From positions 930,001 through 962,000 of the forward strand of contig NZ_CP017260.1 of the NCBI RefSeq assembly GCF_001735745.1: a DNA stretch of 32,000 bases, written 5' to 3'. The notes under the pieces were generated by a model. It worked only from the letters and a program-made list of their open reading frames with translations. It ran no database searches and was not told where the DNA came from. This document shows, in pieces, positions 7,315 through 31,595 of this stretch (the first letter of the stretch is position 1; each line of letters opens with the position of its first letter). A program made the position numbers and the translations under genes. This stretch comes from Formosa sp. Hel1_33_131. GTDB lineage: Bacteria; Bacteroidota; Bacteroidia; Flavobacteriales; Flavobacteriaceae.

Positions 7315-7316
7315 CT

Positions 7317-7634: not shown

Positions 7635-7639
7635 ATTCT

Positions 7640-10902: not shown

Positions 10903-10913
10903 AAATCTAAATT

Positions 10914-12188: not shown

Positions 12189-12208
12189 GCAATAGAGACA
12201 CATGAATC

Positions 12209-12227: not shown

Positions 12228-12238
12228 CACCAAAAAAA

Positions 12239-13426: not shown

Positions 13427-13434
13427 CCCTTCCT

Positions 13435-19231: not shown

Positions 19232-19412
19232 ATTTATGGAGGGCTCATTTTCATTATTGTAAATGTAAATCTTAAAAATGTCTCCTGAAATTTTTTCAAC
19301 TTAGGCAAACTTCCATTCGCCTAAACAAAAGCTACTTTAGAACTTTACGACCCCTATTTATTAGGAAACAAAACTACTTTTGAAGTCATTTAAGTAATGA
19401 TAATTATGAAAG

Positions 19413-19431
19413 ATCCATAACTAAATCTTGA
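19413..19431 (+). promoter_or_regulatory. Conserved 19-nt element, copy 2 (atcCATAACTAAATCTTga), in the leader region of the REC-GT2 gene
   Basis: 17/19 identity with 12209..12227. It lies 64 nt upstream of ATG 19495 and downstream of a TAnnTTTG-type -7 box candidate (TACTTTTG, 19375-19382). Confidence 0.3.
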
Positions 19432-19494
19432 TTCCTAATGGAATGATCAAATGGATGTAACATGTAATCATTAAAAATCAATAAAAAATAACAC

Positions 19495-20703
19495 ATGAAA
19501 GTACTAGCGATTGATGACCAAAAATTAGTTCTGATTCCTTTAGAAAATAGACTGAAGGAGTTAGGCTATGAAGTACGTACTGCAACAAACGCTTTAGATG
19601 CGATAGATCTATATGACTCTTTTCATCCAGATTTAATCATTGTGGATATTAACATTCCATTTATGTCAGGTATGGAAGTGGTGAAATATATTCGTAAGAC
19701 AAAAAATTCATCTACACCAATTATGATTTTATCAGGCAATACAGAGGATGCTATCATCCTAGAAGGTTTTGATCTCGGCATCAATGACTATATGAAAAAG
19801 CCCCTAAGCTTAATTGAAGTTTGTGCAAGAGTGAAAAAATTAATTGGAGCTCCTAAAACTAATAATAAAACGATCCTAAATAAAGGGATCATCATTCAAC
19901 AACGCTGTGTTGGGGTGGTCATCCCTTGTTATAATGAAGAAAAAAGATTGATACATAAAGAATTTACAGATTTCATTGATAAAAATTCAGGATATTATTT
20001 GTGTTTTGTAAATGATGGCAGTACCGATAACACACTAGAAATTTTAAACGGTTTAAGAAACGAAAGGGAAGACTTTATTACGGTCTTTAATTGCAAAAAA
20101 AACGTTGGTAAAGCCGAAGCTGTAAGACAAGGAATGCTGTTGATGTCTAAAAAAGAAGATTTAGATTATATCGGCTTTTTAGATGCCGATTTATCTACAG
20201 ACCTAACCGATTTTGACGATTTAGTGTCAACTATAGAAAATTCTGAATACATGATCGTAAGTGGCTCTAGAATAAGCAGAATGGGAGCAAACATTACCAA
20301 AAGATCTGTTAGGTCTGTAATAAGCTTGGCCATAAACTTTATGATCAGAAAAATTCTTTCTATGGATTTTCAAGACACCCAGTGTGGCGCAAAAATCTTT
20401 CATAAAGAAGTCATTGGAATTTCATTCGATAAAAAATTTGTAACTAAATGGATTTTTGACGTTGAAATATTTAGAAGAATCACTTTACATTTTGGCTTAA
20501 AAAAAACAAAAAAAATACTTTGTGAGCAACCCCTAAAACGATGGATTCATGTGGATAACTCAAGGTTGTCAATGAAAGATTCTATCAAAATTGTGGGGCA
20601 ATTGGGACAAATTGCTTGGTCTTATAGACGCAAAAACAAAACACTGTCAAAACTAAGAGATCTTCATAAGAATAAGCCCGTTTCTATCTCAGAAATACAA
20701 TAA
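19495..20703 (+). CDS. Response-regulator receiver domain fused to a family-2 glycosyltransferase (polyprenyl-phosphate sugar transferase-like, DPM1/ALG5/GtrB type)
   Basis: 402 aa. The REC domain has all catalytic residues: AIDDQ, LIIVDINIPFMSG, IMILSG, DYMKKPL. The GT2 domain has VGVVIPCYNEE, CFVNDGSTDNT, NVGKAEAV, the DxD motif as FLDADLS, and QDTQCGAKIF (compare the DTQCGFK motif of dolichyl/undecaprenyl-phosphate glucosyltransferases). Confidence 0.85.
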   Translation: MKVLAIDDQKLVLIPLENRLKELGYEVRTATNALDAIDLYDSFHPDLIIVDINIPFMSGMEVVKYIRKTKNSSTPIMILSGNTEDAIILEGFDLGINDYMKKPLSLIEVCARVKKLIGAPKTNNKTILNKGIIIQQRCVGVVIPCYNEEKRLIHKEFTDFIDKNSGYYLCFVNDGSTDNTLEILNGLRNEREDFITVFNCKKNVGKAEAVRQGMLLMSKKEDLDYIGFLDADLSTDLTDFDDLVSTIENSEYMIVSGSRISRMGANITKRSVRSVISLAINFMIRKILSMDFQDTQCGAKIFHKEVIGISFDKKFVTKWIFDVEIFRRITLHFGLKKTKKILCEQPLKRWIHVDNSRLSMKDSIKIVGQLGQIAWSYRRKNKTLSKLRDLHKNKPVSISEIQ

Positions 20704-20705
20704 AA

Positions 20706-21137
20706 ATGAGCATGAAAAAAGGAATCATAATCGTATTTTCTAACAATGAAAAAGAGATTAAAGAAACCCAATTTGATAAGCTTTTAGATAAAGATGTTGC
20801 GGAATTTTGTTTTGTGAATAACGCAAGTAATGATCATACTTTAGACAAACTAAAAGACATTAAAACTAAAACCTTTAACAATATATCTATTGTAGATGTA
20901 AAAAAAAATAAAGGCACAAAAGCAGCTATTAAAGCAGGCGTCAGGTATCTGGTTAATAATAAAGAGTTGAAGTTAATTATCTATTTAGTGTTTTATAAAA
21001 ATACTGACTTTTTAAATTTAGAATATACGCTCAATATTATGATGAATAGAAATAAAAAAATAATCAACCTAAACACAAACAATCGAAATATTTTACAAAA
21101 TGTGTTTTCACTAGAACAGCTCATTAAAAAAATATAA
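20706..21137 (+). CDS. Truncated, degenerate GT2-like protein (N-terminal half-domain paralog of the preceding GT2)
   Basis: 143 aa. By-eye alignment to REC-GT2 residues ~140-215: GIIIVFSNNEKEI / GVVIPCYNEEKRL; CFVNNASNDHTLDKL / CFVNDGSTDNTLEIL; KKNKGTKAAIKAGVRYL / KKNVGKAEAVRQGMLLM. The nucleotide-binding Asp is changed (VNDGSTD to VNNASND), and the DxD and acceptor half are absent. Starts 2 nt after the REC-GT2 stop. Confidence 0.55.
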   Translation: MSMKKGIIIVFSNNEKEIKETQFDKLLDKDVAEFCFVNNASNDHTLDKLKDIKTKTFNNISIVDVKKNKGTKAAIKAGVRYLVNNKELKLIIYLVFYKNTDFLNLEYTLNIMMNRNKKIINLNTNNRNILQNVFSLEQLIKKI

Positions 21138-21144
21138 AGATAAT

Positions 21145-21176
21145 TTTGTCCGAAATAAAAATAAATACTATTTTTG
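21145..21176 (+). promoter_or_regulatory. Bacteroidota-type promoter candidate for the Rrf2 operon (-33 TTTG, 20-nt spacer, -7 TATTTTTG)
   Basis: TTTG at 21145-21148 and TATTTTTG at 21169-21176 match the TTTG / TAnnTTTG consensus with the expected ~19-21 nt spacing. They lie 20 nt upstream of ATG 21196. TAnnTTTG alone is frequent in AT-rich DNA. Confidence 0.45.
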
Positions 21177-21195: not shown

Positions 21196-21630
21196 ATGTT
21201 TTCAAAAAGTTGTAAATACGGAATTAAAGCCACACTCTACATCGCTCAAAGGTCGCAGTATGAAGAGAGAGTCAGCTTAAAAGAAATTGCTGCTGCGATT
21301 AACTCTCCTATTGCGTTTACAGCAAAAATACTACAAGTCCTTGCCAAAGCAAACATCATCAATTCAACTAAGGGCCCAAATGGTGGTTTTGAAATAGATA
21401 AAGCGCGTTTAGCTAAAATCAGTATTCATCAGATTGTAAAAGCTATCGATGGGAATCGTTTATTTGACGGCTGCGTATTAGGCCTTAACGTTTGTAATGC
21501 GGATGAACCCTGTCCTATGCACAATGAATTTGTAATCATAAGAAAACAACTTAGCGAAACACTCGCCTCCTCTAACTTACTCAATGTAGCATTGGATCTC
21601 AATCTTGGACTAACGGTATTAAAACGATAA
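21196..21630 (+). CDS. Rrf2-family transcriptional regulator with Fe-S ligand set (NsrR/IscR-like)
   Basis: 144 aa. The Rrf2 N-terminal wHTH is MFSKSCKYGIKATLYIAQRS..VSLKEIAAAINSPIAFTAKILQVLAKANII. The C-terminal cluster-ligand pattern is GCVLGLNVCNADEPCPMH (C-x6-C-x5-C-x2-H). Confidence 0.85.
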   Translation: MFSKSCKYGIKATLYIAQRSQYEERVSLKEIAAAINSPIAFTAKILQVLAKANIINSTKGPNGGFEIDKARLAKISIHQIVKAIDGNRLFDGCVLGLNVCNADEPCPMHNEFVIIRKQLSETLASSNLLNVALDLNLGLTVLKR

Positions 21631-21675
21631 AAAAAAATAATCTTAATAAAGATAAAAAGGTCTTTATATCTGTAT

Positions 21676-23445
21676 ATGAAAATCCATCAACTATCCCTCA
21701 TAAAACCCTTAGAAGTAATATCTGAAAACTGGCTAACAAGTCCAGGAGTTATTGGCACCATTGTACTGGTGTTTATCATCCTATTTTTAGGCGTTTATAT
21801 TTTCTTGAAACGATTAAATCGGTATGTAGATTTTCTAGAAAAAAACACAACAGACCTAACAGAAAAAGAATTTGAAAGAAAACTCATCAACCTTGAAGAG
21901 CAGGAAGTTGATGACATCTTAGAACTTCGACAACAAGGATTTAAAACCAAAATAAAGCCAAGCGATACTTCTGAAATTTCATCGAAACACAGCGGGTTTA
22001 TCAAAAAAATTATAAACCCCAAAAATCCATTATTTGATGAGAAGTCAACCTCTACCACAAAAATAAAAATCTCCGAAAAACTTAAAGAAATTATTATTTG
22101 GTACTTGAGTGCCGCAGTCTTTTGGTTGATCTTTGGAACACTCGTGGGTCAGTATATTGGGATGAAATTTATTTGGCCCGAAATGGATTCTATAAGCTGG
22201 CTCTCCTTTGGTAGGTTACGCCCCGTACATACCAATACTGTGTTTTGGGGATGGGCTTCTATGGCAATGATAGCTCTAGGACATTATGTAGTCTCAAGAA
22301 CTTCAAACCGAGAAATTTTTAGTTACAAACGATCAAAAATTGCTTTTTGGTTTATGAACGCAAGTGTGCTTATTGGAAACCTCTTTTTAATGGGTGGCAT
22401 CAATAATGGTGGAGGAGAGTATCGGGAATACATCTGGCCTGTTATGGCTTTATTTGCCGTGGGGCTTATTTTAACTTTTCTTAACTTCTATAAGACAGTC
22501 GCCACTCGCAAAATTTCAGAAATCTATATTTCTAACTGGTTTATTTTGGCTTCACTCATTTGGACGATTGTACTCACCTTTATTGGCTACTTTCCAGACT
22601 ATCAAGAAGGGTTGGGAGAGACGGTCATTCAAGGCTATTATATGCACCAAGGTGTAGGGATGTGGTTTATGACGTTTACATTAGGACTTGTGTATTATTT
22701 TTTACCATCAACTCTTAACAAACCTATTTATTCTTACTCTTTAGGAGTCTTAGCGTTCTGGACACAGATGATATTTTACACCTTAATAGGAACGCATCAT
22801 TTTGTGTTTAGTCCTTTACCGTGGTGGCTACAAACCGTAGCCATTGTTTTTAGTGCTGGAATGTTTATTCCCGTACTAGCAGGAAGTACTAATTTTTTTA
22901 TGACAATGCGTGGTAGTTGGAACCATATATCAAAAAGTTATGTGCTTCCGTTTTTTCTGGTAGGTGTTGTATTCTATTTTGTAGGATCTGTTCAAGGAAG
23001 TTTTCAGGCCTTTCGATTCACAAACTATTTATGGCATTTTACCGATTTTAATGTCGCACACTCTCACATGACCATGTACGGAATCATCACCTTTTTGATG
23101 TGGGCTTGTATATACGCTTTACTCCCAAAAATAACAGGAAAAGAGCCTCCTCAAAACTTAGTAGGAAGTCATTTTTGGCTGGCGTTTATTGGTCTAATTG
23201 CCTACATGATTTCTCTAATGACTGGAGGAACTCTTAAGGGCCTCAGTTGGATTGAAGGTAATCCATTTATCGAATCTGTAATTCTAATGGAAAACTTTTG
23301 GATTTGGCGTGCGATAGGAGGCTCCCTTATGTTTGTGTCTCATCTAATTTTTGGTTATAACTTCTATTTGATGGTTCGCAAGAAAAAAGAAATTACTATT
23401 TCGCGAAAGGAAACATTTCAACAACAAATTAAAATTAATTCATAA
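21676..23445 (+). CDS. ccoN: C-family (cbb3-type) heme-copper oxidase subunit I, CcoN-like, with a ~130-aa N-terminal extension
   Basis: 589 aa. CcoN hallmarks: FGRLRPVHTNTVFWGW (low-spin heme His), YMHQGVGMWFMTFTLGLVYYFLP (CuB His), FWTQMIFYTLIGTHHF (HH CuB ligands, with Tyr 6 residues upstream as in cbb3 cross-linked Tyr) and WHFTDFNVAHSHMTMYG (heme b3/b His pair). The extra N-terminus has one TM (VIGTIVLVFIILFLGVYIF) plus a charged linker. Confidence 0.85.
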   Translation: MKIHQLSLIKPLEVISENWLTSPGVIGTIVLVFIILFLGVYIFLKRLNRYVDFLEKNTTDLTEKEFERKLINLEEQEVDDILELRQQGFKTKIKPSDTSEISSKHSGFIKKIINPKNPLFDEKSTSTTKIKISEKLKEIIIWYLSAAVFWLIFGTLVGQYIGMKFIWPEMDSISWLSFGRLRPVHTNTVFWGWASMAMIALGHYVVSRTSNREIFSYKRSKIAFWFMNASVLIGNLFLMGGINNGGGEYREYIWPVMALFAVGLILTFLNFYKTVATRKISEIYISNWFILASLIWTIVLTFIGYFPDYQEGLGETVIQGYYMHQGVGMWFMTFTLGLVYYFLPSTLNKPIYSYSLGVLAFWTQMIFYTLIGTHHFVFSPLPWWLQTVAIVFSAGMFIPVLAGSTNFFMTMRGSWNHISKSYVLPFFLVGVVFYFVGSVQGSFQAFRFTNYLWHFTDFNVAHSHMTMYGIITFLMWACIYALLPKITGKEPPQNLVGSHFWLAFIGLIAYMISLMTGGTLKGLSWIEGNPFIESVILMENFWIWRAIGGSLMFVSHLIFGYNFYLMVRKKKEITISRKETFQQQIKINS

Positions 23446-23448
23446 CAA

Positions 23449-24450
23449 ATGTTAAATTTCCATAAAGACCATAGAAATCTTGTCATAGTTGCCTTCAGCG
23501 TTTTTGCAATATTAAGTATCGGCGTTGCTATTATTCCTGCCTACCAAATGGAGACCTATGAACCGATACCAGGACAAAAAAAACTTAGTATTTCCGAAAG
23601 GAATGGCCTCCATATTTATATCGCTGAAGGTTGTGTCGCCTGTCACACCCAACAAGTTAGAAATATTGAGATGGATAAAACTTGGGGAGAAAGACCTTCA
23701 TTAGCTTCTGATTACTACTATAGTAAACAGCGCATGGATTTCTGGAGGCAATCCCCTTCTCTATTAGGAAGTGAACGTACAGGGCCAGACCTTACGGATA
23801 TTGGAAATCGACAACCTAGCGACCAGTGGCATTTACTGCATTTGTATAATCCTCGGTTGGTTGTAGAAGCTTCTATAATGCCCCGATATTCTTGGTTATT
23901 CACAAAAATAGACACTACCAATGTTCAACAGGAGGATGTGACTTTACCGCGTGGAATTACAAAAATGATGGGTAGTGACATTATAGTGGCAAAAAAAAAT
24001 GCACTAGACCTTGTCTCCTATTTAAAAAGTTTACAACAATATTCGTTTGAGAGTGCGACACCTTCAAGTTTTATACCTGCACTTCCCAAAGAGGAAAATG
24101 GCAATGCTAGTAGCGTTCCATCAAAAAAGTCCTCTGGCGGAGCAGATCTATATCAAAAAAATTGTGCTGCTTGCCACCAAGGGACAGGGCGCGGCGTAAA
24201 AGGCGCTTTCCCTCCACTAACGGGCAGTTTGATTGTCAACGATAAAAATCCAGAAACACTCATCAAAATTATATTAATGGGCTACGATGCTCGCCAGCAG
24301 TACGGCGTTATGCCCCCTTTTGCTGACAAACTTTCTGATGAAGACATCAAAGCGATTGCAGATCATGAGCGATCAAGCTGGGGAAATAGTGCACCAGAAG
24401 TTCCGTTAGAAACCATTACAAGACTAAGAGATTCAATTTTAAAACTATAA
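23449..24450 (+). CDS. ccoO: CcoO-like mono-heme subunit fused to a C-terminal mono-heme cytochrome c domain (CcoO-CcoP-like fusion)
   Basis: 333 aa with an N-terminal TM anchor. The FixO/CcoO block is GLHIYIAEGCVACHTQQVR..LLGSERTGPDLTDIGNR..WHLLHLYNPRLVVEASIMPRYSWLF. A Ser/Pro-rich linker is followed by a second CxxCH (LYQKNCAACHQGTG) with a distal Met candidate (YGVMPPF). Confidence 0.85.
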   Translation: MLNFHKDHRNLVIVAFSVFAILSIGVAIIPAYQMETYEPIPGQKKLSISERNGLHIYIAEGCVACHTQQVRNIEMDKTWGERPSLASDYYYSKQRMDFWRQSPSLLGSERTGPDLTDIGNRQPSDQWHLLHLYNPRLVVEASIMPRYSWLFTKIDTTNVQQEDVTLPRGITKMMGSDIIVAKKNALDLVSYLKSLQQYSFESATPSSFIPALPKEENGNASSVPSKKSSGGADLYQKNCAACHQGTGRGVKGAFPPLTGSLIVNDKNPETLIKIILMGYDARQQYGVMPPFADKLSDEDIKAIADHERSSWGNSAPEVPLETITRLRDSILKL

Positions 24451-24460
24451 TATTATTATT

Positions 24461-24697
24461 ATGAAAATAGACTATTTAGAAAGCTTACAATGTAAAACTC
24501 CTGCAGAAGGCAGGCTGCTCGCCTTTACCCTTGCTAGAAAAACAATCGCTGCAATTCAAACGAATCCTGAAGTTCGTGAAAAGCTCAGGTCTCAATATTC
24601 AGAAGATACCGCCCAATTAATAGCCTCCTCTCAAGTGGTCGCTATTGAATTTCAAACCATTGCCATGGCAAACAACTACTGGAAAGATGAAAAATAA
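24461..24697 (+). CDS. Hypothetical small soluble protein
   Basis: 78-aa ORF in the operon's coding direction with an ATG start 10 nt after the ccoO-like stop. No recognisable motif. Its end overlaps the next gene's probable start. Confidence 0.35.
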   Translation: MKIDYLESLQCKTPAEGRLLAFTLARKTIAAIQTNPEVREKLRSQYSEDTAQLIASSQVVAIEFQTIAMANNYWKDEK

Positions 24698-24959
24698 ACT
24701 TATAATAATTATCGCACTAGTAATGAGCAATGCAGGCTTCGCATGTGAGGTGTGTAAAGCCAAACAGCCAAAAGGGTTTGAAAACCTTACTCATGGTGAA
24801 GGCCCTCAAGGAAATATAGACTATTTCATAATGTACAGTGCTGCTGTAATTGTCGGATACACGCTAATAATGAGTGTGAAATATTTGGTCAAACCAAAAG
24901 AAAACAATCGAGACCACATCAAAAACCTCATTTTAAATGATTCTAATTTTTCTGAATAA
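24687..24959 (+). CDS. Small membrane protein with an N-terminal signal/anchor, a CxxC motif and one TM helix
   Basis: I moved the start to ATG 24687 (MKNKLIIIIALVMSNAGFACEVCKAKQPKGF..). The TM helix is YFIMYSAAVIVGYTLIMSV. The stop overlaps the next start (TAATG). Confidence 0.45.
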   Translation: MKNKLIIIIALVMSNAGFACEVCKAKQPKGFENLTHGEGPQGNIDYFIMYSAAVIVGYTLIMSVKYLVKPKENNRDHIKNLILNDSNFSE

Positions 24960-25381
24960 TGATAAATAAAAGAAAAGTAAGTGTCCTTCTCGATAATGAG
25001 AAAATACCCTTTGGAGTGTTTGAACCTCCCGTAAAACTCGTGCTTGACACTACGAAAATACCAGATGGCAAGCACGAACTAAAAATCAACGCCATTTCGT
25101 CAAGTGGAATTCAAAGTGTAAGGATCATTCCTTTTGAAGTACGCAATGGTCCTGAAATAGCCGTCGTAGGACTGAAAGATCATGAAATCATAGAATCAAA
25201 TACAGCCATTCTAATTAATGCCTATGGCAGTGAGACTTCCGAATCCTTTATAATTAGAGGTTCAGAAACACCAAAAGCCATTCCTTCATGGGTTTGGGCG
25301 TGTATCATTGTATTTGTCAGTTTTGCTGTATTTTACTTTATAACACACTGGAATATGAACACTTATAAATCATTTTTTTAA
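24959..25381 (+). CDS. Hypothetical protein: beta-sandwich-like domain plus C-terminal TM anchor
   Basis: 140 aa. Sequence ..KLVLDTTKIPDGKHELKINAISSSGIQSVRIIPFEVRNGPEIAVV.. is followed by the TM helix WVWACIIVFVSFAVFYFI. Both ends are TAATG-coupled to neighbours. Confidence 0.5.
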   Translation: MINKRKVSVLLDNEKIPFGVFEPPVKLVLDTTKIPDGKHELKINAISSSGIQSVRIIPFEVRNGPEIAVVGLKDHEIIESNTAILINAYGSETSESFIIRGSETPKAIPSWVWACIIVFVSFAVFYFITHWNMNTYKSFF

Positions 25382-25746
25382 TGAACGATATTATTAACAG
25401 AAAAGACATAGAATTAATGGTAGACACCTTCTACGGAGAAGTACGAAAAGATAACCTTTTAGGCCCCATTTTCAATGGCGTCATTAAAGATAATTGGACG
25501 AAACACTTAGACACCATGTACCGTTTTTGGCAAACTGTTCTTTTACACGAAATCGCTTACAAGGGATCTCCATTTGTGCCGCACAGAAAACTACCCATAG
25601 AAGCACAGCATTTTGAGCGTTGGGTATTTCACTTCAACAATTCAATGGATAAAAATTTTGAAGGCAAGCTTGCTGAGGAAGCAAAATGGAGAGCTTCTAA
25701 AATGGCCGAAATGTTCATGTATAAATTGAGTCGTCACAGTTTTTAA
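25381..25746 (+). CDS. Group III truncated hemoglobin (Ctb-like)
   Basis: 121 aa. Close by-eye match to Campylobacter Ctb-type globins: FYGEVRKDNLLGPIFNGVI, HLDTMYRFWQTVLL, KGSPFVPHRKLPI (proximal His region) and FERWVFHF. Confidence 0.75.
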   Translation: MNDIINRKDIELMVDTFYGEVRKDNLLGPIFNGVIKDNWTKHLDTMYRFWQTVLLHEIAYKGSPFVPHRKLPIEAQHFERWVFHFNNSMDKNFEGKLAEEAKWRASKMAEMFMYKLSRHSF

Positions 25747-25791
25747 ACATCAACACATCAATAGAAATTAAATCTTCTAGAAACATTAGAA

Positions 25792-26232
25792 ATGACACTA
25801 AGCAATAAACTAACGATCTCAATCCCGCTTCTATGGCTAGGTTTTGTACTTTCCATCTCGTTTATGGAAGCATGGCTAAAATTTCAAGCAGAAGGGGTGA
25901 CGCTAGCAATTGGTTTGAGCGTTGGTAAACTCATCTTTTTTGCATTAAATAAAGTTGAATTATTATTTTTACTAGTTATCGGCATTTTAACATTCCGAAA
26001 ACAGTCACTACAAAGAAAACACCTTGTAAACATACTTGTATGGCTGATGGTGATTTTACTCATTCAAACATTTTATTTGCTACCAGCCCTTAATCAACGT
26101 GCTGAAATGATTATAAGTGGGAACCCTCCAACCACTTCCTTTTTTCATATTTATTATATTTTTTTAGAAGTATTAAAAGTAATTGCACTCCTCATTTTCT
26201 CACACTTAACCTTAAAAAAACACAATGGATAA
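25792..26232 (+). CDS. Integral membrane protein, ~4 TM, unknown function
   Basis: 146 aa with four hydrophobic segments (ISIPLLWLGFVLSISF; GLSVGKLIFFAL..LLFLLVIGILTF; ILVWLMVILLIQTFYLL; IYYIFLEVLKVIALLIF). Overlaps the TDO start by 8 nt. Confidence 0.55.
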   Translation: MTLSNKLTISIPLLWLGFVLSISFMEAWLKFQAEGVTLAIGLSVGKLIFFALNKVELLFLLVIGILTFRKQSLQRKHLVNILVWLMVILLIQTFYLLPALNQRAEMIISGNPPTTSFFHIYYIFLEVLKVIALLIFSHLTLKKHNG

Positions 26233-27160
26233 CACAAAAATTTATCAATCACTAGAAGACAAATACACAAATCTAGGAGAGAATTCTTCTACGTATTTAA
26301 AAGGGATTCTGCACACCAAGGAAACAGACTACTGGAGTTATATCCAGCTGGATACGCTTCTATCGTTGCAAAATCCTAAAACACATTTTGAAGATGAAGA
26401 AGTCTTCATCATCTATCATCAACTAACGGAACTTATGTTAAAACTCGTACTCAATGAGATAAAAAAGTTGACAGAAAACAATGAGGTTGATGAAGAACTC
26501 TTTATTTCAAAATTACAGAGAATCAACCGTTACACACAAATGCTCATCAATTCGTTTGCTATAATGCGACATGGTATGGACTATGATGATTATAACACTT
26601 TTAGAAGTGCTCTCGCTCCTGCCAGTGGTTTTCAAAGTGCTCAATTTAGATACATTGAACTGCGTAGTACCTCTCTAGAAAATTTAATTCCACAGAAAAA
26701 TAAGATTACCAAAGAAAGTCGTATTGAAGACTTAATGGAACTGCAATACTGGAAAGCAGCAGGCACCAACCCTAGGACTGGAAATAAAACGCTCACCCTT
26801 CGTCAGTTCGAAGAAAAGTATGGCGCTAAACTTTTACAACTCGCTAAGGATTTCAGAAATAAAACACTCAAGGATCGGTTTGAAAGTATCAAATCCCCAT
26901 CAGAAGAACTCATTAATCTAATGCGAACTTTTGATTATTTATATAATATAAAATGGCCTATCGTTCATTTGGAAACCGCTTCTTATTATCTAGATTCCAA
27001 AGGAGAAAGGAAAGAAGCCACAGGGGGTTCAGAATGGAAAAAATACTTACACCCTAAAAATCAACGTCGCATCTTCTTTCCATCGGTCTGGTCAACAGAT
27101 GAATTAAAAAATTGGGGAGACCCATGTTTCTTTCGTGATGAAGATTTTAAAGGGCACTAA
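26225..27160 (+). CDS. kynA: Tryptophan 2,3-dioxygenase family heme protein
   Basis: 311 aa. TDO motifs: YWSYIQLDTLLSLQNP, EEVFIIYHQLTELMLKL (distal His), YNTFRSALAPASGFQSAQFRYIEL (Tyr/Arg that bind the Trp carboxylate, plus SGFQSxQFR), WPIVHLETASYYL (proximal His) and ATGGSEWKKYL. Confidence 0.8.
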   Translation: MDNTKIYQSLEDKYTNLGENSSTYLKGILHTKETDYWSYIQLDTLLSLQNPKTHFEDEEVFIIYHQLTELMLKLVLNEIKKLTENNEVDEELFISKLQRINRYTQMLINSFAIMRHGMDYDDYNTFRSALAPASGFQSAQFRYIELRSTSLENLIPQKNKITKESRIEDLMELQYWKAAGTNPRTGNKTLTLRQFEEKYGAKLLQLAKDFRNKTLKDRFESIKSPSEELINLMRTFDYLYNIKWPIVHLETASYYLDSKGERKEATGGSEWKKYLHPKNQRRIFFPSVWSTDELKNWGDPCFFRDEDFKGH

Positions 27161-27161
27161 A

Positions 27162-27464
27162 ATGATCGTAAACGTTATAGATTTAGATAATAAAATACAT
27201 GCTTTAAAATATAAACGATTGGAATATCCTAGTTTAATGGAACTGATAACCAACTCCTATTATTCAGAAATTGGTGAATGTAAAGGAAAAGGATTGTGCG
27301 GAACTTGTATTGTTGAAGTGATAAAAGGCTTTGAAAAACAGCCTATAAGCACACAAGAAAAGCACACCCTTAAGGTTCATAATGCAACCACAAAAAACAG
27401 ATTGGCCTGTCAAATTATCCTAGATCATAAAACGAATGGCGCCGTCTTTAAAGAAATCATATAA
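27162..27464 (+). CDS. [2Fe-2S] ferredoxin-like protein
   Basis: I moved the start to ATG 27162 (MIVNVIDLDNKIH..), 2 nt after the TDO stop. The Cys pattern is ECKGKGLCGTCIVEV (C-x5-C-x2-C) plus a distal LACQI Cys, as in plant/vertebrate-type 2Fe-2S ferredoxins. Confidence 0.7.
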   Translation: MIVNVIDLDNKIHALKYKRLEYPSLMELITNSYYSEIGECKGKGLCGTCIVEVIKGFEKQPISTQEKHTLKVHNATTKNRLACQIILDHKTNGAVFKEII

Positions 27465-27483
27465 CTAAGTAAAAAGGGGAGAA

Positions 27484-27795
27484 ATGGAAAACTTAGAAAA
27501 AGAAAATCAAATCATCGATCAACTAAAAATGGTATATGACCCCGAAATCCCAGTCAACGTCTATGACTTAGGTCTTATTTATGATTGCAAAATTTTAGCA
27601 GAAGATCGCGTTGAAATTTTGATGACACTCACCTCACCTTCTTGTGCCATGGCAGGAATGATTGTGGACGAAGTAAGAGAGCGTGTCTCAGAACTTGATT
27701 TTATAAAAAAAACGACTGTGGAACTCACTTGGGACCCCCCTTGGGATAAAATACTAATGAGTGACGAAGCATTACTCTTACTCGGATTTATGTAA
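27484..27795 (+). CDS. DUF59 / SufT-like Fe-S cluster assembly protein
   Basis: 103 aa. Family-typical sequence: LKMVYDPEIPVNVYDLGLIYD..ILMTLTSPSCAMAGMIVDEV..VELTWDPPWDKILMSDEALLLLG. Confidence 0.8.
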   Translation: MENLEKENQIIDQLKMVYDPEIPVNVYDLGLIYDCKILAEDRVEILMTLTSPSCAMAGMIVDEVRERVSELDFIKKTTVELTWDPPWDKILMSDEALLLLGFM

Positions 27796-27828
27796 AACTA
27801 AAAAACAATAACTTAAAAAACCCAAATT

Positions 27829-28572
27829 ATGAAGATCACATCAAAAAGTATCGTCGGCGATATCGTTGCCGACAATTACAAAACAGCAGAAATTTTTAAA
27901 AAACACAACATTGATTTCTGTTGTGGCGGACAACAAACTATAGAGGAGGCTTGTGACAAAGAACACCTTTCTAGTGCCGATTCTGAAACACTCCTACAAT
28001 CCGTGAATGCGTTTTTTGAACAAAACGAAAGGGAGCAACACGCCTCAGACTATCGGAATTGGCCTCTCGATGAGCTTGCAGATCACGTGGAGACAAAACA
28101 CCACGGATACGTTGAAGCAAAAATTCCCGTAATAAAAGAATACTTAGACAAAATTGAATCTGCTCACGGAAAAAAACATCCAGAGCTCTCAAAAATCAAT
28201 ACAATATTCAAAGATGCTACTGGACAATTGGTCATGCATATGAAAAAAGAAGAACTCATATTATTTCCATACATTAGAAAAATGGCCAAGGCAAAACGGA
28301 AAAATATCCAATTAGCAACTCCTACTTTTGAAACAATAAAAAACCCCATTAGTAAAATGGATGAAGAACATGATTTTGAAGGGGAAGCCTTCAGAGAAAT
28401 TGCAGCCTTAGCAAATAATTACAACGTACCAGCAGATGGCTGTAATACATACCGTGTTGCTTTTGGCATGCTTAAAGAATTTGATGAAGACCTTCACTTA
28501 CACATCCATAAAGAGAACAATGTTTTGTTTCAAAGAGCGATTGCACTTGAAGAAGAATTACTACAAGCTTAA
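27829..28572 (+). CDS. ric: Iron-sulfur cluster repair di-iron protein (RIC; YtfE/ScdA family)
   Basis: 247 aa. The ScdA_N motif is FKKHNIDFCCGG. Hemerythrin-like His/Glu ligand blocks: LADHVETKHHGYV, HMKKEELILFPYI, MDEEHDFEGEAFREI and LHLHIHKENNVLFQRA. Collinear with E. coli YtfE by eye. Confidence 0.9.
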   Translation: MKITSKSIVGDIVADNYKTAEIFKKHNIDFCCGGQQTIEEACDKEHLSSADSETLLQSVNAFFEQNEREQHASDYRNWPLDELADHVETKHHGYVEAKIPVIKEYLDKIESAHGKKHPELSKINTIFKDATGQLVMHMKKEELILFPYIRKMAKAKRKNIQLATPTFETIKNPISKMDEEHDFEGEAFREIAALANNYNVPADGCNTYRVAFGMLKEFDEDLHLHIHKENNVLFQRAIALEEELLQA

Positions 28573-28592: not shown

Positions 28593-28630
28593 AAAAAAGC
28601 TTCTCAAAATGAGAAGCTTTTTTGTTGTTT
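28593..28630. terminator. Bidirectional rho-independent terminator
   Basis: Perfect 13-bp stem AAAAAAGCTTCTC (28593-28605) / GAGAAGCTTTTTT (28611-28623) with loop AAAAT. T-runs follow on both strands. It lies 21 nt after the ric stop and directly abuts the 3' end of the minus-strand tRNA. Confidence 0.85.
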
Positions 28631-28830: not shown

Positions 28831-30219
28831 ATGAACTCACTACAATCTTATCTCAACTCAAATAAAGATCGCTTCGTTCAAGAGCTTTTCGAACTTCTTA
28901 GAATCCCATCGGTGAGTGCAGATTCTGCCTTCAGTAAAGATGTGTTTAAAGCAGCCGATTTTGTAGCTGACAGTCTAAAAAAAGCTGGTTGCGATACCAT
29001 AGAAATTTGTCAAACCAAAGGATTTCCTATTGTTTATGGCGAAAAACTGATAGACCCTAAGCTTCCAACGATTTTGGTATATGGTCATTATGATGTGCAA
29101 CCCGCAGATCCGATTGAATTATGGGATGCCCCCGCTTTTGAACCCATCATTAAAAAAACCAAACTCCATCCCGAAGGTGCCATTTTTGCACGGGGTGCGT
29201 GTGACGATAAAGGTCAAATGTATATGCACGTCAAAGCCCTTGAATTTATGACCTCAACAGATCAATTGCCGTGTAACGTTAAGTTTATGATTGAAGGCGA
29301 AGAAGAAGTTGGCAGTGAAAATCTAGCTGAGTTTGTTAAAAACAACACCACCAAACTAAAAAATGATGTCATCCTAATTTCGGACACCGGAATGATTGCG
29401 AAAGACACACCCTCCATCACAACAGGGCTGCGAGGCTTGAGCTATGTAGAAGTTGAAGTCACAGGTCCAAATAGAGACTTACACTCTGGGATTTACGGAG
29501 GAGCCGTCGCAAACCCAATCAATGTATTGGCAAAAATGATCGCCTCTTTACACGATGAAAACAATCATATTACCATTCCTGGTTTTTATGATAAAGTCGA
29601 AGATTTATCAGACGAAGAACGCGCAGAAATGGCAAAGGCACCGTTTTCATTAGAGGCCTATAAAGATTCTTTAAAAATCAATGCCGTCTATGGCGAAAAA
29701 GGCTATTCAACCAACGAACGCAACTCCATTCGTCCCACACTAGATGTGAATGGAATTTGGGGTGGCTATACCGGTGAAGGCGCCAAAACCGTTATTGCGA
29801 GCAAAGCTTATGCAAAAATATCAATGCGCTTAGTTCCTAATCAGGATTGTGAGGAAATTACACTGCTTTTTAAATCCCATTTTGAAAGCATTGCTCCAGA
29901 AGGGGTGACTGTAAAAGTAACTCCACATCATGGTGGTCAGGGCTATGTAACTCCTATCGATACGATTGGATACAAAGCCGCTGCGATGGCTTATAAAGAC
30001 ACTTTTGGCACTGCACCCATCCCACAACGTGGCGGGGGAAGTATTCCTATTGTGGCCTTATTTGAAAAAGAATTAAAGAGTAAAACCATTTTGATGGGAT
30101 TTGGATTGGACAGTGATGCCATCCACTCCCCTAACGAACATTTTGGACTTTTCAATTACTTTAAAGGGATCGAAACAATTCCGCTGTTTTATAAATATTT
30201 TACCGAGCTTCAGTCATAA
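28831..30219 (+). CDS. M20-family dipeptidase (CNDP/PepV-like metallopeptidase)
   Basis: 462 aa. M20 metal and catalytic motifs: VYGHYDVQPADP, ARGACDDKGQ, MIEGEEEVGS and DAIHSPNEH. Confidence 0.85.
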   Translation: MNSLQSYLNSNKDRFVQELFELLRIPSVSADSAFSKDVFKAADFVADSLKKAGCDTIEICQTKGFPIVYGEKLIDPKLPTILVYGHYDVQPADPIELWDAPAFEPIIKKTKLHPEGAIFARGACDDKGQMYMHVKALEFMTSTDQLPCNVKFMIEGEEEVGSENLAEFVKNNTTKLKNDVILISDTGMIAKDTPSITTGLRGLSYVEVEVTGPNRDLHSGIYGGAVANPINVLAKMIASLHDENNHITIPGFYDKVEDLSDEERAEMAKAPFSLEAYKDSLKINAVYGEKGYSTNERNSIRPTLDVNGIWGGYTGEGAKTVIASKAYAKISMRLVPNQDCEEITLLFKSHFESIAPEGVTVKVTPHHGGQGYVTPIDTIGYKAAAMAYKDTFGTAPIPQRGGGSIPIVALFEKELKSKTILMGFGLDSDAIHSPNEHFGLFNYFKGIETIPLFYKYFTELQS

Positions 30220-30239: not shown

Positions 30240-31595
30240 CTACTTACCAATCACTATTTTTTGTGAGAACACTTTTTTGTCTTGAGTAATACGTACAAAA
30301 TACGCCCCTAGGGTAAATTGACTCATATTCACTTTTGTGCGTTTTTCTGTTAAAATTGTTTCGAGTACTTTTTTGCCTTCTATCGAGAATAACTCAAACG
30401 CCAAATCGTCATTCAAAGAATGTTCAATATGGAGTATTGACGAAGTAGGATTTGAATAGATTTTAATCATATTTAATTTGAAAGTATCCGCATCTAAGGA
30501 TGTGAAATCAACACAAGAACTTAATTCCGTACAAGACCCTACAGTCACTTCAACAGCGTAACTACCACTTGCAGTAGGCGAAAAGGATTGACTCACCTCG
30601 GAAGTTAGTGGAAGATTCGTGCTACAATCAAACCATCGATAACTGGCATTGCCCATATTTGAGGTTAAAGTCGTAGAACTCATCGTGAGTGAATTGTCAA
30701 CAGACACCAAACTCCCTTTGGTGACCATATAAGACATAATCAGTTTTGCAATCTCGTGAAAATAGGGCAAATCCAACGTACTATATCGATCGCCAGAAGA
30801 ATGGTAGTGAGGCGTTTGATCGTTATTTTCCCAAGACTCCCCAACCAGCACCGCAGAAAATCCTTGATCCCAAAAACGTGCATGATCACTAGCTGGCGTT
30901 CCAGGGTTCACCACATTAACGTTTAAATTAAAACCATAGGTGGCTAACAAACCTACCAAGTCATCTTTCATTGCTAGAGAATTTGCAATAGGACGCACAT
31001 CAATATCAAAATCATCGTCGTTATCACCATCATACCCCATCATATCAATGTTTAAAACACCCAATATGTTATCTCCATTGGTATTTGCTTGCGTGGCATA
31101 AAAACTAGCTCCTCTAAGTCCTATTTCTTCTTCATCCCACAAGGCATAAATGATCGTATTGTCCATACATTGAGTCGATAAAATACGTGCAATTTCTAAG
31201 ACGGTTGCCGTTCCAGAAGCATTGTCATCGGCACAATAGTCTGCCACCGAATCGTAATGTGCACAGATAATGTAAATATCATTTGGATTGGTTTTCCCTA
31301 ACTGCGTCGCAATGATATTACGTCCGTTGGTATTAAAAGCCTGATCATTTACAGTGAGATTGTCCATCGCATTGAATTTGTCAACCAAAAAATCACCCGC
31401 AAGGTCATTATTGGCTTGCCCTCTATTCAATATCGTAACACTATTACCCCCAACATTCGTTGCGATTTCACCCGTAAATTCCTGAACCGTTTGGCTAAGA
31501 GAATCTAAACTAACGGAATTAATGAGGTCTAATTCTGTTTGTGCAGACAGCGTACTGATCACACAAATACTAAGACTTAAAAGTAACTGCTTCAT
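30240..31595 (-). CDS. Secreted M28-family aminopeptidase with a T9SS (Por) C-terminal sorting domain
   Basis: 451 aa with signal peptide MKQLLLSLSICVISTLSAQ. M28 motifs: IICAHYDS, ADDNASGTA, LWDEEEIGLRGA, NIDMMG and HYHSSGD. The C-terminal ~80 aa follows the T9SS CTD pattern (IKIYSNPTSSILHIE..FELFSIEGKKV..GAYFVRITQDKKVFSQKIVIGK). Confidence 0.85.
   Translation of the reverse strand: MKQLLLSLSICVISTLSAQTELDLINSVSLDSLSQTVQEFTGEIATNVGGNSVTILNRGQANNDLAGDFLVDKFNAMDNLTVNDQAFNTNGRNIIATQLGKTNPNDIYIICAHYDSVADYCADDNASGTATVLEIARILSTQCMDNTIIYALWDEEEIGLRGASFYATQANTNGDNILGVLNIDMMGYDGDNDDDFDIDVRPIANSLAMKDDLVGLLATYGFNLNVNVVNPGTPASDHARFWDQGFSAVLVGESWENNDQTPHYHSSGDRYSTLDLPYFHEIAKLIMSYMVTKGSLVSVDNSLTMSSTTLTSNMGNASYRWFDCSTNLPLTSEVSQSFSPTASGSYAVEVTVGSCTELSSCVDFTSLDADTFKLNMIKIYSNPTSSILHIEHSLNDDLAFELFSIEGKKVLETILTEKRTKVNMSQFTLGAYFVRITQDKKVFSQKIVIGK

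Follow-up and report, generated by a model that had tools for sequence, protein, structure and literature searches.

Why would Formosa sp. Hel1_33_131 place a haem-copper oxidase, a globin, a haem dioxygenase and Fe-S repair functions behind a single Rrf2-family regulator, and to which signal might that regulator respond? The locus (FORMB_08810-08920) comprises 12 genes, all on the + strand between positions 21196 and 28572 of the window, which is the whole 32,000-nt stretch of DNA that was analysed. Its genes and control elements are as follows.

21135..21154, no strand: operator, 20-bp imperfect palindrome TAAAGATAATTTTGTCCGAA (family consensus TTCGGATAAnTTTGTCCGAA)
21145..21176, +: Bacteroidetes-type promoter, -33 TTTG at 21145-21148, 20-nt spacer, -7 TATTTTTG at 21169-21176
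21196..21630, +: FORMB_08810, Rrf2-family regulator (PF02082, 79.5 bits)
21647..21666, no strand: degenerate second-operator remnant TAAAGATAAAAAGGTCTTTA in the Rrf2-CcoN' spacer (PWM 3.4)
21676..23445, +: FORMB_08820, CcoN', variant C-family haem-copper oxidase catalytic subunit (PF00115, 282 bits)
23449..24450, +: FORMB_08830, CcoO'-cytochrome c fusion, dihaem electron-entry subunit (PF02433 FixO, 112.6 bits)
24461..24697, +: FORMB_08840, HTHP, hexameric tyrosine-coordinated haem protein (PF11534, 109 bits)
24687..24959, +: FORMB_08850, sp5, small membrane protein with signal-like N-terminus, A-C-x2-C, TM helix and DHIK
24959..25381, +: FORMB_08860, sp6, beta-rich domain followed by a C-terminal TM helix
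25381..25746, +: FORMB_08870, group III truncated haemoglobin, trHb (PF01152)
25792..26232, +: FORMB_08880, TM4, 146-aa multi-pass membrane protein without Pfam match
26225..27160, +: FORMB_08890, divergent TDO-family haem dioxygenase (PF03301, 84 bits)
27162..27464, +: FORMB_08900, 2Fe-2S ferredoxin, Fer2 (PF00111, 27.3 bits)
27484..27795, +: FORMB_08910, DUF59/SufT-like Fe-S assembly protein (PF01883, 58.8 bits)
27829..28572, +: FORMB_08920, RIC/YtfE-type di-iron Fe-S repair protein (ScdA_N and hemerythrin domains)
28593..28623, no strand: bidirectional intrinsic terminator, 13-bp perfect stem, 5-nt loop, flanking A and T tracts

An earlier reading of this DNA from its letters alone (the sequence-only reading) had described 12 tightly coupled genes, and all of these open reading frames are present where it placed them. 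Direct reading of the junctions also reproduces the spacing it had reported, with no gap above 45 nt: the intergenic gaps are 45, 3, 10, 45, 1, 19 and 33 nt, TAATG overlaps occur at 24959 and 25381, and a ATGGATAA overlap lies at 26225-26232. HTHP and sp5 overlap by 11 nt, provided that sp5 starts at the ATG at 24687. A ferredoxin start at 27135 was replaced by 27162, which is most likely correct and yields a 100-aa product identical to the GenBank/RefSeq protein. The promoter candidate it had proposed is in place ahead of the first gene. Of 55 orthologous upstream regions, 32 have a TTTRTC plus TAnnTTTG-like pair, spaced mostly by 19-20 nt; such a pair reportedly constitutes the Bacteroidetes promoter consensus (Bayley 2000; Chen 2007). 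The perfect terminator it had seen after the last gene (arms 28593-28605 and 28611-28623) is borne out by folding at -21.9 kcal/mol (z = -8.35), a value matched by none of 200 shuffles, and the convergent tRNA-Leu shares this terminator. As for the domains, the Rrf2, CcoN-like, CcoO-cytochrome c, group III trHb, TDO, Fer2, DUF59 and RIC assignments stand, whereas one presumed 'small protein' is HTHP.

A comparative search for the same gene string recovered the core order Rrf2-CcoN'-CcoO/c-sp5-sp6(-trHb) in all 80 loci fetched, out of a set of at least 560 species that are almost all Bacteroidota. Because the order recurs throughout, the arrangement is far beyond chance. About half of the string is core: CcoO' comes after CcoN' in 72 of 74 loci, sp5 follows CcoO' in 71 of 73, sp6 is found in 73 of 73 (2494 homologs), the trHb in 51 of 72 and the Rrf2 gene in 58 of 77. 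The other members are accessory across the phylum, namely TM4 (30/70 loci), HTHP (29/74), RIC (28/64), TDO (16/67), ferredoxin (less than 8 kb from the oxidase in 7/62) and DUF59 (0/62), the last two being the least conserved. Yet DUF59 stands at the end of the cluster in Catalinimonas (Cytophagales), where the string is nearly identical. Further accessory genes of these clusters encode OsmC, AhpD-like CMD, thioredoxin-like and hemerythrin proteins.

The regulator carries the ligand set C93-x6-C100-x5-C106-x2-H109 in the window protein, and C6, C93, C100, C106 and H109 are invariant among 68 homologs. The sequence-only reading had pointed to NsrR-type repressors, but the regulator is no NsrR ortholog: its score with the NsrR equivalog is 25 bits (cut-off 182), a PDB comparison places it at equal distance from the IscR, NsrR and CymR structures (E about 1e-3), and its operator is presumably unlike the NsrR box. 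Since it falls far below the cut-offs of all NCBIfam equivalogs (NsrR, IscR, RirA, CymR and SufR), it is, by sequence, not an IscR ortholog either. By these scores, the regulator is a distinct Rrf2 subfamily. Its best sub-threshold NCBIfam matches are SufR of the Xanthomonas type (60.6 bits against 110.65) and IscR. These matches, a Cys3-His spacing that we take to resemble IscR, and the presence of SufT-like, ferredoxin and RIC genes within the operon might suggest IscR/SufR-like homeostasis, in which Rrf2 would sense the cell's demand for Fe-S clusters and the operon would contribute to supplying them. This idea appears highly improbable given how widely every equivalog cut-off is missed and how rarely DUF59 and ferredoxin accompany the cluster; moreover, no suf/isc assembly genes lie beside the operator at 121 PWM hits in the genome loci (cut-off score 14) or at 87 exact matches in metagenomes.

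What does the operator say about the signal? In 51 of 55 loci, the palindrome is found ~50 bp ahead of the Rrf2 ATG. Its half-site positions 3/18 and 4/17 show more co-variation than any of 1000 shuffles, a statistic inflated through shared ancestry. In Formosa it scores 19.4 by PWM, against a maximum of 17.4 over 50 window shuffles, and is the sole strong site in 32 kb, with the -33 TTTG falling inside its right half. In many other species, the position equivalent to the remnant in the Rrf2-CcoN' spacer holds a strong second site, with scores reaching 26. The operon is headed by an Fe-S-type Rrf2 of its own, which almost certainly controls it. The operator is centred at about -40 relative to the inferred start site, which also fits activation, so that the sense of control (repression or activation) is not fixed by this position.

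In other Bacteroidota, the operator stands ahead of RIC, which then carries its own site, and of cupins, aconitase and RIC-qNOR in genome loci; in metagenome contigs, it also stands ahead of norC-norB-norQ-norD (norCBQD) and of Rrf2-norC-norB-nirK(cytochrome c)-FGE/nirV-like clusters. Globin genes, too, lie behind it in relatives. A regulon gene was found less than 300 bp from the exact operator in 43 of 87 metagenome contigs (Rrf2 28, RIC 6, cupin 5, norC 4), and no recognisable regulon gene was found near about half of the exact matches in these 87 contigs. Because the operator also precedes NO and nitrite reductase genes in relatives, an NO reading is backed by the logic of the regulon. We suggest, with a probability of roughly 55%, that the operon is the Formosa copy of a Bacteroidota-wide NO-linked regulon under a dedicated cluster-binding Rrf2 of its own subfamily.

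The oxidase differs from its canonical relatives in several ways. CcoN' scores 250 bits against the ccoN equivalog (cut-off 583), and its PDB matches are cbb3 CcoN (E 1e-68) and NorB (E 4e-10 and 3e-4). Clade members share at least 48% identity and the next representatives at most 41%; by these identities, the oxidase is a discrete clade within the C-family haem-copper oxidases. It resembles canonical CcoNOQP (P. stutzeri 3mk7; the Bacteroidota CcoNO fusion) in its fold, in all six His ligands, in the cross-link Tyr of helix VII and in having a subunit of the FixO type. However, it is only ~30-40% identical to canonical cbb3 (30% to the neighbouring canonical ccoNO by tblastn), adds a conserved N-terminal extension of ~135 aa (a TM segment and a domain), has one c-type domain attached to CcoO (residues 231-306, matching PF13442/PF00034) instead of CcoP and two putative new small subunits instead of CcoQ, and is under Rrf2 control. 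In addition, Q440 stands where P. stutzeri has E323, and WWYGHN in the active-site region is changed to GYYMHQ, both invariantly in the family. The same genomes also encode canonical ccoNO (two of the fetched loci; FORMB_19350 in Formosa). As to the small subunits, neither sp5 nor sp6 belongs to a family in Pfam or NCBIfam, and sp6 has no PDB relative, profile search included; NCBI labels it 'cytochrome C', yet a CxxCH motif is absent, and its AF2 model is of low confidence (pLDDT 58). Both are, by their predicted features, conserved membrane proteins whose genes follow those of the oxidase. With its conserved A-C-x2-C and DHIK motifs, sp5 is a probable oxidase subunit or assembly factor, and sp6 a probable oxidase subunit.

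The CcoN' complex might instead be Formosa's NO reductase, removing NO made by copper nitrite reductase; the operon would then be a module of truncated denitrification or NO respiration and not one for an oxidase. Formosa B does express a copper nitrite reductase (FORMB_14760), and its proteome, as distinct from the genome, showed no protein with an NO reductase annotation (PMC6246565). The operator shared with nor/nirK genes elsewhere and the two invariant changes in CcoN' would fit, and slow NO reduction is already a property of canonical cbb3 enzymes (PMC9266656). However, the cross-link Tyr and three-His CuB mark O2 reductases and are absent from all known NOR families, according to Murali et al. 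2024 (PMC11214002). Because CcoN' keeps all metal ligands and this tyrosine (H185, H324, Y368, H374, H375, H462 and H464, all invariant), it is not a known NOR type; FeB-type glutamates are absent from it, and a qNOR beside the same operon in several genomes (five loci) makes it no simple substitute. We consider this role decidedly unlikely. The cNOR/qNOR, eNOR, sNOR, gNOR, nNOR and bNOR families are, like CcoN', members of the haem-copper superfamily (PMC11214002), and cNOR and qNOR lie on the same C-family side of the tree; CcoN' would itself sit within an NO-linked regulon, but its similarity to NorB is weak.

Expression bears on how specialized the operon is. At least nine of its 12 products, HTHP among them, were detected in published Formosa B proteomes from ordinary cultures without known NO stress (PMC6246565 SI Tables S2A-C, S3), and in glucose-grown membranes CcoN' reached 0.106 riBAQ%, above canonical cbb3 subunit I (0.030) and aa3 subunit I (0.036) (PMC6246565). 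Detection of so many products argues against tight repression, and the substantial basal expression suggests a working respiration branch tuned by the regulator rather than a pure emergency system. The earlier notion of a dedicated nitrosative-stress operon therefore keeps its NO link, through the operator ahead of RIC, qNOR, nor and nirK, but loses the word 'dedicated'.

A further possibility is an ordinary alternative respiratory branch, with CcoN' as a routine second high-affinity O2 reductase and an Rrf2 that reports oxygen, redox or Fe-S status instead of NO; the globin, HTHP and TDO would then handle oxygen or peroxide, and the NO-related neighbours elsewhere would reflect general low-oxygen (denitrification) control. 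CcoN' has a complete O2-reductase signature and, with CcoO', ranks with the more plentiful oxidase subunits in Formosa B cultures grown aerobically (PMC6246565). The accessory genes of the clusters, hemerythrin included, speak for such a branch as well; those for OsmC, AhpD-like CMD and thioredoxin-like proteins fit peroxide or oxygen stress equally, which counts against the NO reading. In line with this possibility, Fe-S sensors in general respond to both O2 and NO, and Ctb has been linked to oxygen metabolism in Campylobacter. Nevertheless, we think it rather unlikely, since the operator lies directly ahead of norCBQD, RIC-qNOR and RIC, which have NO-specific functions, and since the known low-oxygen control of denitrification runs, to our knowledge, through FNR/CRP-type regulators and not Rrf2 proteins.

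Returning to the NO-linked regulon, we speculate that the signal is nitric oxide, or NO-type damage to the Rrf2 Fe-S cluster. Holo-Rrf2 on the -33 box would limit transcription, and cluster loss or nitrosylation would raise it. The oxidase group, that is, CcoN' with its extension, the fusion that would replace CcoO and CcoP, and the two small membrane proteins, may maintain electron flow while ordinary oxidases are NO-inhibited, and may consume NO; ordinary cbb3 oxidases are strongly inhibited by NO, yet have NO-reductase activity (review PMC9266656). HTHP, the Ctb-like globin and the TDO-like dioxygenase might act on NO, O2 or peroxide, by binding or by turnover. HTHP matches PDB 2oyy (E 5e-14), with Y46 aligned to a Tyr that is presumably the haem ligand Tyr45, and the nearest solved structure to the trHb is C. 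jejuni Ctb (2ig3, E 3e-14). The TDO reaches 91 bits against TIGR03036 (cut-off 391); in its alignment with 2nox/2nw7, the distal and proximal His, the carboxylate clamp of Tyr/Arg and the TGG(S) motif are all retained. TM4 has conserved residues. The ferredoxin, SufT-like protein and RIC could rebuild damaged Fe-S centres; RIC clears the TIGR03652 equivalog (225 bits, cut-off 205), and DUF59 scores 119 bits against TIGR02945 (cut-off 143).

How does this system compare with known ones? NsrR regulons in E. coli, Bacillus subtilis, Neisseria and Streptomyces coelicolor likewise have an autoregulating Cys-liganded Rrf2-family regulator, a palindromic operator over the promoter, and targets that include RIC/YtfE/DnrN, NO reductase, nitrite reductase and globins. 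In contrast, the Rrf2 here is no ortholog, has another operator and combines C-x6-C-x5-C-x2-H with the invariant C6, and at the heart of its regulon is a haem-copper oxidase, together with HTHP and a TDO-like protein; no flavohaemoglobin or Hcp was seen in this regulon. The NssR regulon of Campylobacter jejuni (Cgb, Ctb) also joins a group III trHb to a nitrosative-stress regulator in a cbb3-respiring organism, but NssR is a Crp/Fnr protein and the globin is not encoded with an oxidase. In Vibrio fischeri, the NsrR-controlled AOX, like the NO-tolerant cytochrome bd, is a terminal oxidase that sustains respiration under NO. The idea of an NO-sensing repressor turning on a terminal oxidase is the same; however, AOX is a di-iron enzyme and bd a quinol oxidase, whereas the enzyme here is a cytochrome c-dependent haem-copper oxidase, a class normally strongly inhibited by NO. 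Rrf2 genes adjoin clade II nosZ clusters in Flavobacteriia, and so stand beside N-oxide genes in Bacteroidetes, in Calderoli et al. 2018, where no operator, regulon or oxidase operon is given (PMC6264515). We found no prior description of the operon composition in the literature, in keeping with the earlier claim that it is unlike described regulons, and the NO-linked oxidase system is apparently undescribed so far. The same window also contains an H-NOX NO-sensor module, 14-16 kb upstream of the operon.

The twelve plus-strand open reading frames that a sequence-only reading had placed at 21196-28572 were all found there, and the junctions, read directly from the sequence, agree with the tight coupling that it had described: intergenic gaps are 45, 3, 10, 45, 1, 19 and 33 nt, TAATG overlaps lie at 24959 and 25381, a ATGGATAA overlap lies at 26225-26232, and genes 4 and 5 overlap by 11 nt. 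Exact look-up gives the locus tags FORMB_08810 to FORMB_08920, and the CcoN-like product matches at 100% identity a protein of Formosa sp. Hel1_33_131, which is a flavobacterium from the North Sea. The promoter candidate and the perfect 13-bp terminator of the same reading are also present, the former as the motif TTTG-N20-TATTTTTG upstream of the Rrf2 gene (21145-21176, sequence read) and the latter as a stem after the last gene (28593-28605/28611-28623, sequence read and folding; -21.9 kcal/mol, z = -8.35), which also serves a convergent tRNA-Leu. An automated terminator scan overlooked this hairpin, and a sigma-70 promoter scan of the window returned 31 matches against 28 expected, which is uninformative for Bacteroidota. 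A search of the operon for riboswitches and other RNA elements matched the tRNA only. Profile searches and comparison with solved structures gave the following gene identities, all on the + strand:

Gene 1, from 21196, +, FORMB_08810: Rrf2 regulator; PF02082 79.5 bits (cut-off 30), TIGR00738 73.9 (cut-off 73.3)
Gene 2, +, FORMB_08820: CcoN', COX1/CcoN-like, 589 aa, with an N-terminal extension of ~135 aa
Gene 3, 23449-24450, +, FORMB_08830: CcoO/c, FixO domain (PF02433, 112.6 bits) with one fused c-type cytochrome domain
Gene 4, +, FORMB_08840: hexameric tyrosine-coordinated haem protein (HTHP), ~75 aa; PF11534 109 bits (cut-off 25)
Gene 5, +, FORMB_08850: sp5, small membrane protein of no family; signal-like N-terminus, conserved A-C-x2-C, TM helix
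Gene 6, 24959-25381, +, FORMB_08860: sp6, membrane protein of no family; beta-rich domain and C-terminal TM helix
Gene 7, +, FORMB_08870: group III truncated haemoglobin (trHb), 2-on-2 globin domain; PF01152 32.4 bits (cut-off 21)
Gene 8, 25792-26232, +, FORMB_08880: TM4, multi-pass membrane protein of no family
Gene 9, +, FORMB_08890: tryptophan dioxygenase (TDO)-family protein; PF03301 84 bits (cut-off 34.9)
Gene 10, start most likely 27162, +, FORMB_08900: 2Fe-2S ferredoxin
Gene 11, +, FORMB_08910: DUF59/SufT-like protein
Gene 12, to 28572, +, FORMB_08920: RIC/YtfE/ScdA; TIGR03652 225.4 bits (cut-off 204.7), PF04405 (ScdA_N) and PF01814 (di-iron hemerythrin)

Earlier assignments upheld by these searches include the CcoO-cytochrome c, by its FixO and single c-type domains; the group III globin, whose nearest solved structure is Campylobacter jejuni Ctb (2ig3, E 2.7e-14; runner-up 1.7e-3); and RIC, which passes its equivalog cut-off. 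Two others stand in part. Among the "three small proteins", sp5 and sp6 indeed belong to no family, but the third is HTHP, with a Tyr that aligns with the Tyr of 2oyy, which we take to be the haem-ligating residue. The proposed Trp dioxygenase falls in the TDO family but misses the equivalog model (TIGR03036, 91 versus a cut-off of 391), confident alignment being confined to the N-terminal 120 aa; in the alignment, the TGG(S) motif, both the distal and the proximal His and the Tyr/Arg clamp are conserved. Profile searches of Pfam, NCBIfam and PDB found no relatives of sp6, which carries the NCBI name "cytochrome C" yet has no CxxCH motif, and its AlphaFold2 model from 30 homologs (pLDDT 58) was too poor for a fold search. 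The annotated lengths of two genes also vary: for TM4, GenBank gives 61 aa and RefSeq 122 aa, whereas the conserved ORF encodes 146 aa, and for CcoO/c, GenBank gives 259 aa for an ORF of 333 aa.

The structural comparison bears out the description of gene 2 as CcoN-like as far as its nearest relative is concerned, which is cbb3 CcoN (E 1e-68, versus 3.7e-10 and 3.3e-4 for NorB). Six His residues, H185, H324, H374, H375, H462 and H464, correspond to Pseudomonas stutzeri H60, H207, H257, H258, H345 and H347, the ligands of haem b, haem b3 and CuB, and are invariant in 14 diverse homologs; so is Y368, which aligns with P. stutzeri Y251, the C-family cross-link position in helix VII, and is the predicted cross-link tyrosine. 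A ligand and tyrosine signature of this kind marks an oxygen reductase and is present in no known NO reductase (NOR) family (Murali et al. 2024, PMC11214002), and by that criterion CcoN' would be classed as an oxygen reductase. The alternative that it is itself a cNOR or qNOR was rejected, as the active-site Tyr and the CuB ligands are kept, the similarity to NorB is weak and the HQGVG motif has no FeB Glu.

The likeness to ordinary cbb3 oxidases ends at the equivalog models, which score CcoN' at 250 bits against a cut-off of 583 for ccoN and CcoO/c at 101 against 201 for ccoO. P. stutzeri E323, which reportedly (work of Buschmann and colleagues in 2010) hydrogen-bonds the haem b3 proximal His, is replaced by Q440, invariant in the 14 homologs, and the WWYGHN motif is replaced by GYYMHQ. 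CcoO/c has the CxxCH motif of a monohaem CcoO subunit; the operon has no ccoP, a single c-type domain being fused to CcoO instead, and neither a separate dihaem CcoP nor a small CcoQ was found, sp5 and sp6 being without family. When 1.8 billion cluster representatives were searched exhaustively, CcoN' formed a discrete clade with at least 48% identity, the next relatives lying at 41% or less and typical CcoN at 30-38%. Canonical ccoNO genes occur beside CcoN' in the same genome at two of the fetched loci (L021 and L035, 30% identity), and in Formosa as FORMB_19350.

One scan of species-representative genomes placed CcoN' in at least 560 species, and the hosts among the matches listed were Flavobacteriales, Cytophagales, Sphingobacteriales, Chitinophagales, Saprospiraceae and one Balneolaceae MAG. 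We counted its neighbours in 80 fetched loci, each denominator being the loci that reach far enough. Rrf2 is directly upstream in 58/77, and CcoO/c (72/74), sp5 (71/73) and sp6 (73/73) are nearly constant; then follow trHb (51/72), TM4 (30/70), HTHP (29/74), RIC (28/64), TDO (16/67), ferredoxin (7/62) and DUF59 (0/62). The core is therefore the four-gene oxidase module and its regulator, usually with the globin. The other genes are accessory and vary between loci; elsewhere they include cupins, hemerythrin-like proteins, DUF488, OsmC, CMD/AhpD-like and thioredoxin-like proteins, aconitase and qNOR. Thus, the twelve-gene string proposed from the sequence recurs in its core, and nearly whole in Catalinimonas (Cytophagales), where DUF59 comes last, but its remaining genes are not fixed. 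Directly upstream of the cluster at L029, L031 and L035 we read by eye nadA-like and nadB-like ORFs. NadA is quinolinate synthase, an Fe-S enzyme, and NadB is L-aspartate oxidase; together with the TDO-like gene inside the cluster elsewhere, this hints at a possible tie between NAD synthesis and the oxidase cluster.

The PF02082 and TIGR00738 scores of the regulator place it in the Rrf2 winged-helix fold, and it passes the superfamily model only. Orthology to NsrR and to IscR was rejected: it scores 25.3 bits against 182 for NsrR (NF008240), and 51.9 against 207.55 (TIGR02010) and 28.9 against 275 (NF008110) for IscR; SufR (61/111) and RirA (41/193) are missed too. The NsrR structure 5n07 (E 4.5e-3) matches no better than IscR or CymR, the protein being equally far (E ~1e-3) from these and other solved Rrf2 structures. 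C6, C93, C100, C106 and H109, invariant across 68 homologs, are consistent with Fe-S cluster binding, but this ligand set is identical to neither that of NsrR nor that of IscR, the spacing being C-x6-C-x5-C instead of the C-x5-C-x5-C of NsrR. The regulator is predicted, from the logic of its regulon, to act like NsrR from outside the NsrR orthologous group.

Aligned regions upstream of Rrf2 yielded a 20-bp palindrome, consensus TTCGGATAAnTTTGTCCGAA, whose centre lies ~50 bp before the Rrf2 ATG in 51/55 loci. The copy in the window, TAAAGATAATTTTGTCCGAA (21135-21154), has a PWM score of 19.4 versus a maximum of 17.4 in 50 shuffles and is the sole strong site in 32 kb. The half-sites co-vary with the palindrome kept (CGGAT/ATCCG, ACGAT/GTCGT, CTGAT/ATCAG, AAGAT/GTCTT), which points to a predicted dimeric protein site; at positions 3/18 and 4/17 the co-variation exceeds all 1000 column shuffles, a statistic that is inflated by the shared ancestry of the loci. 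The right half is nearly always TTTGTC, where symmetry would call for TTTATC; this suggests a second role as the -33 TTTG box. Downstream of it, at a spacing of 19-20 nt, comes a -7 box resembling TAnnTTTG. The operator centre lies ~40 bp upstream of the inferred transcription start, which makes occlusion of the -33 box the likeliest of the predicted mechanisms, that is, repression rather than activation. Many species have a second strong operator in the Rrf2-CcoN' spacer; the candidate in that spacer of Formosa is a degenerate remnant (score 3.4).

The operator also stands before other genes. In the genome loci it lies upstream of RIC, cupin genes, aconitase and RIC-qNOR operons adjoining the oxidase cluster. 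Among metagenome contigs, 87 matched the exact operator pattern, and 43 of these have the start of a recognisable regulon gene no more than 300 bp away (Rrf2 28, RIC 6, cupin 5, norC 4). Oxidase-free variants (Rrf2-RIC-hemerythrin and Rrf2-trHb-TM4-RIC-hemerythrin) carry it too, and in the four norC contigs it precedes norC-norB, followed by norQ (L162) and norD (L091) in the two that were checked. One contig holds the following cluster:

L143:897-5554 (metagenome contig CXWL01005556.1): Rrf2, operator, norC, norB, nirK, FGE-sulfatase/nirV-like gene

These genes make up a compact denitrification cluster headed by a regulator of this family, and its nirK has a C-terminal cytochrome c domain. 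The operator is thus found upstream of NO-detoxification and denitrification genes (RIC, RIC-qNOR, norCBQD and norCB-nirK), neighbours that bear out the NO link claimed for the operon and form the main evidence, from gene context, for a putative tie between the regulator and nitric-oxide metabolism. The earlier reading would have fallen had the regulator been an IscR ortholog running isc or suf genes; besides the missed equivalogs, no suf or isc gene stands beside an operator copy in the genome loci and metagenome contigs. The remaining operator-adjacent metagenome genes (exonuclease, methyltransferase, fasciclin, isochorismatase and others) were too mixed to be taken as regulon members, and three exact matches before proteins of ~145-156 aa in high-GC contigs of unrelated bacteria (L089, L116, L123) are probably due to chance or to a different system.

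Extra Rrf2 paralogs occur at L020, L021 and L035 (Aequorivita and relatives) and at L032, L063, L078, L038 and L046 (Algoriphagus). The arrangements seen are two Rrf2 genes in tandem before CcoN', Rrf2 and RIC in divergent orientation, and qNOR-OsmC, immediately 5' of the oxidase operon, with a paralog (~28-30% identity) at its head. A multi-pass protein of ~385 aa with no Pfam family (L013:8069-9220; L038:4438-6222; L129, L145, L152) recurs after RIC or qNOR in strings preceded by the operator, in Algoriphagus with a fused c-type cytochrome domain, and may have an NnrS-like function.

Proteomes of Formosa B are available (Unfried et al. 2018, PMC6246565, SI Tables S2A-C and S3), and our figures refer to the Glucose sheets and to the glucose and laminarin ("Lam") values of S3. 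There, at least nine of the twelve products are detected (FORMB_08810, 08820, 08830, 08840, 08860, 08870, 08890, 08910 and 08920). In the glucose-grown membrane fraction, CcoN' and CcoO/c reach 0.106 and 0.136 riBAQ%, a canonical cbb3 subunit 0.030, aa3 subunit I 0.036, and the copper nitrite reductase FORMB_14760 0.097 (SI Table S2A). These detections show a real, translated operon that is substantially expressed without known NO stress, which tempers the earlier view that it is "dedicated" to nitrosative stress. Because the copper nitrite reductase is expressed and those tables contain no NO reductase by annotation, Formosa B may produce NO itself, and one possibility is that the CcoN' enzyme handles NO from the cell's own NirK.

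Similar logic is known from NsrR regulons, although here a separate Rrf2 subfamily has its own operator, and from the Campylobacter NssR-Ctb system. In Vibrio fischeri, an alternative oxidase is under NsrR control; this too is similar, but the oxidase here belongs to a separate cbb3-type clade with new subunits. We know of no NO regulon described so far that contains HTHP or a TDO-like protein. In the literature we found no prior description of the operon, the regulator subfamily or the operator, in line with the claim that its composition is unlike described regulons; the closest published observation is that Rrf2 genes of Flavobacteriia neighbour clade II nosZ clusters, in a paper that assigns them no definite role (PMC6264515). 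NO strongly inhibits canonical cbb3 enzymes (review PMC9266656).

We speculate, with a probability of roughly three in ten, that CcoN'-CcoO/c-sp5-sp6 is a functionally new NO-adapted branch of the cbb3 enzymes, either an NO-resistant oxygen reductase or a Tyr-keeping NO reductase, and that its regulator represents a new Rrf2 subfamily that senses NO and serves Bacteroidota as their master NO regulator. It might then close a hidden route from nitrite through NO to N2O (or nitrate) during algal blooms in marine flavobacteria that, like Formosa, have nirK and lack nor (an absence that in Formosa refers to the proteome tables). A Tyr-keeping NO reductase, if true, would break the current rule that NORs lack the Tyr cofactor. 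In oceans, soils and sediments, Bacteroidota play a major part in breaking down algal and plant biomass, and how they sense and cope with NO is, to our knowledge, essentially uncharted. The locus supplies a precise operator together with its candidate master regulator, a regulon that spans the phylum and joins Fe-S repair, globins, NOR and NirK, and, in the species counted above, a cbb3-type clade that annotation at present does not separate from ordinary cbb3; the proteome values hint that its enzyme is a main oxidase of a bloom-associated flavobacterium. If that enzyme is NO-tolerant or NO-reducing, the active-site rules separating oxidases from NO reductases would need revision, as would genomic inventories of N2O sources, because CcoN' genes are counted as oxidases.

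The same window holds further genes outside the operon:

4766-5335, +: H-NOX haem-NO-binding protein; PF07700, E 3e-38; YxSxR motif present (YKSGR)
5335-7314, +: PAS-PAS histidine kinase; start overlaps the H-NOX stop (translational coupling)
7640-8344, +: LytTR response regulator, after the kinase
8407-10470, -: TPR protein
12239-13426, +: GT1
13435-14949, -: GH5-like
16142-19231, -: unknown protein of 1029 aa
19495-20703, +: response-regulator::GT2 fusion
20706-21137, +: short GT2 fragment; stop codon overlaps the operator
28831-30219, +: M20 dipeptidase
30240-31595, -: M28 peptidase with a type IX secretion C-terminal sorting domain

H-NOX with a histidine kinase and a response regulator is a classic bacterial NO-sensing module, and here it (4766-8344) lies 14-16 kb upstream of the operon; in the other loci no H-NOX gene was found within 10 kb on either side. 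The interval between the two (8407-21137) carries exopolysaccharide-type genes, which may represent an NO-to-biofilm output. The M28 peptidase and the M20 dipeptidase bear no relation to the operon.
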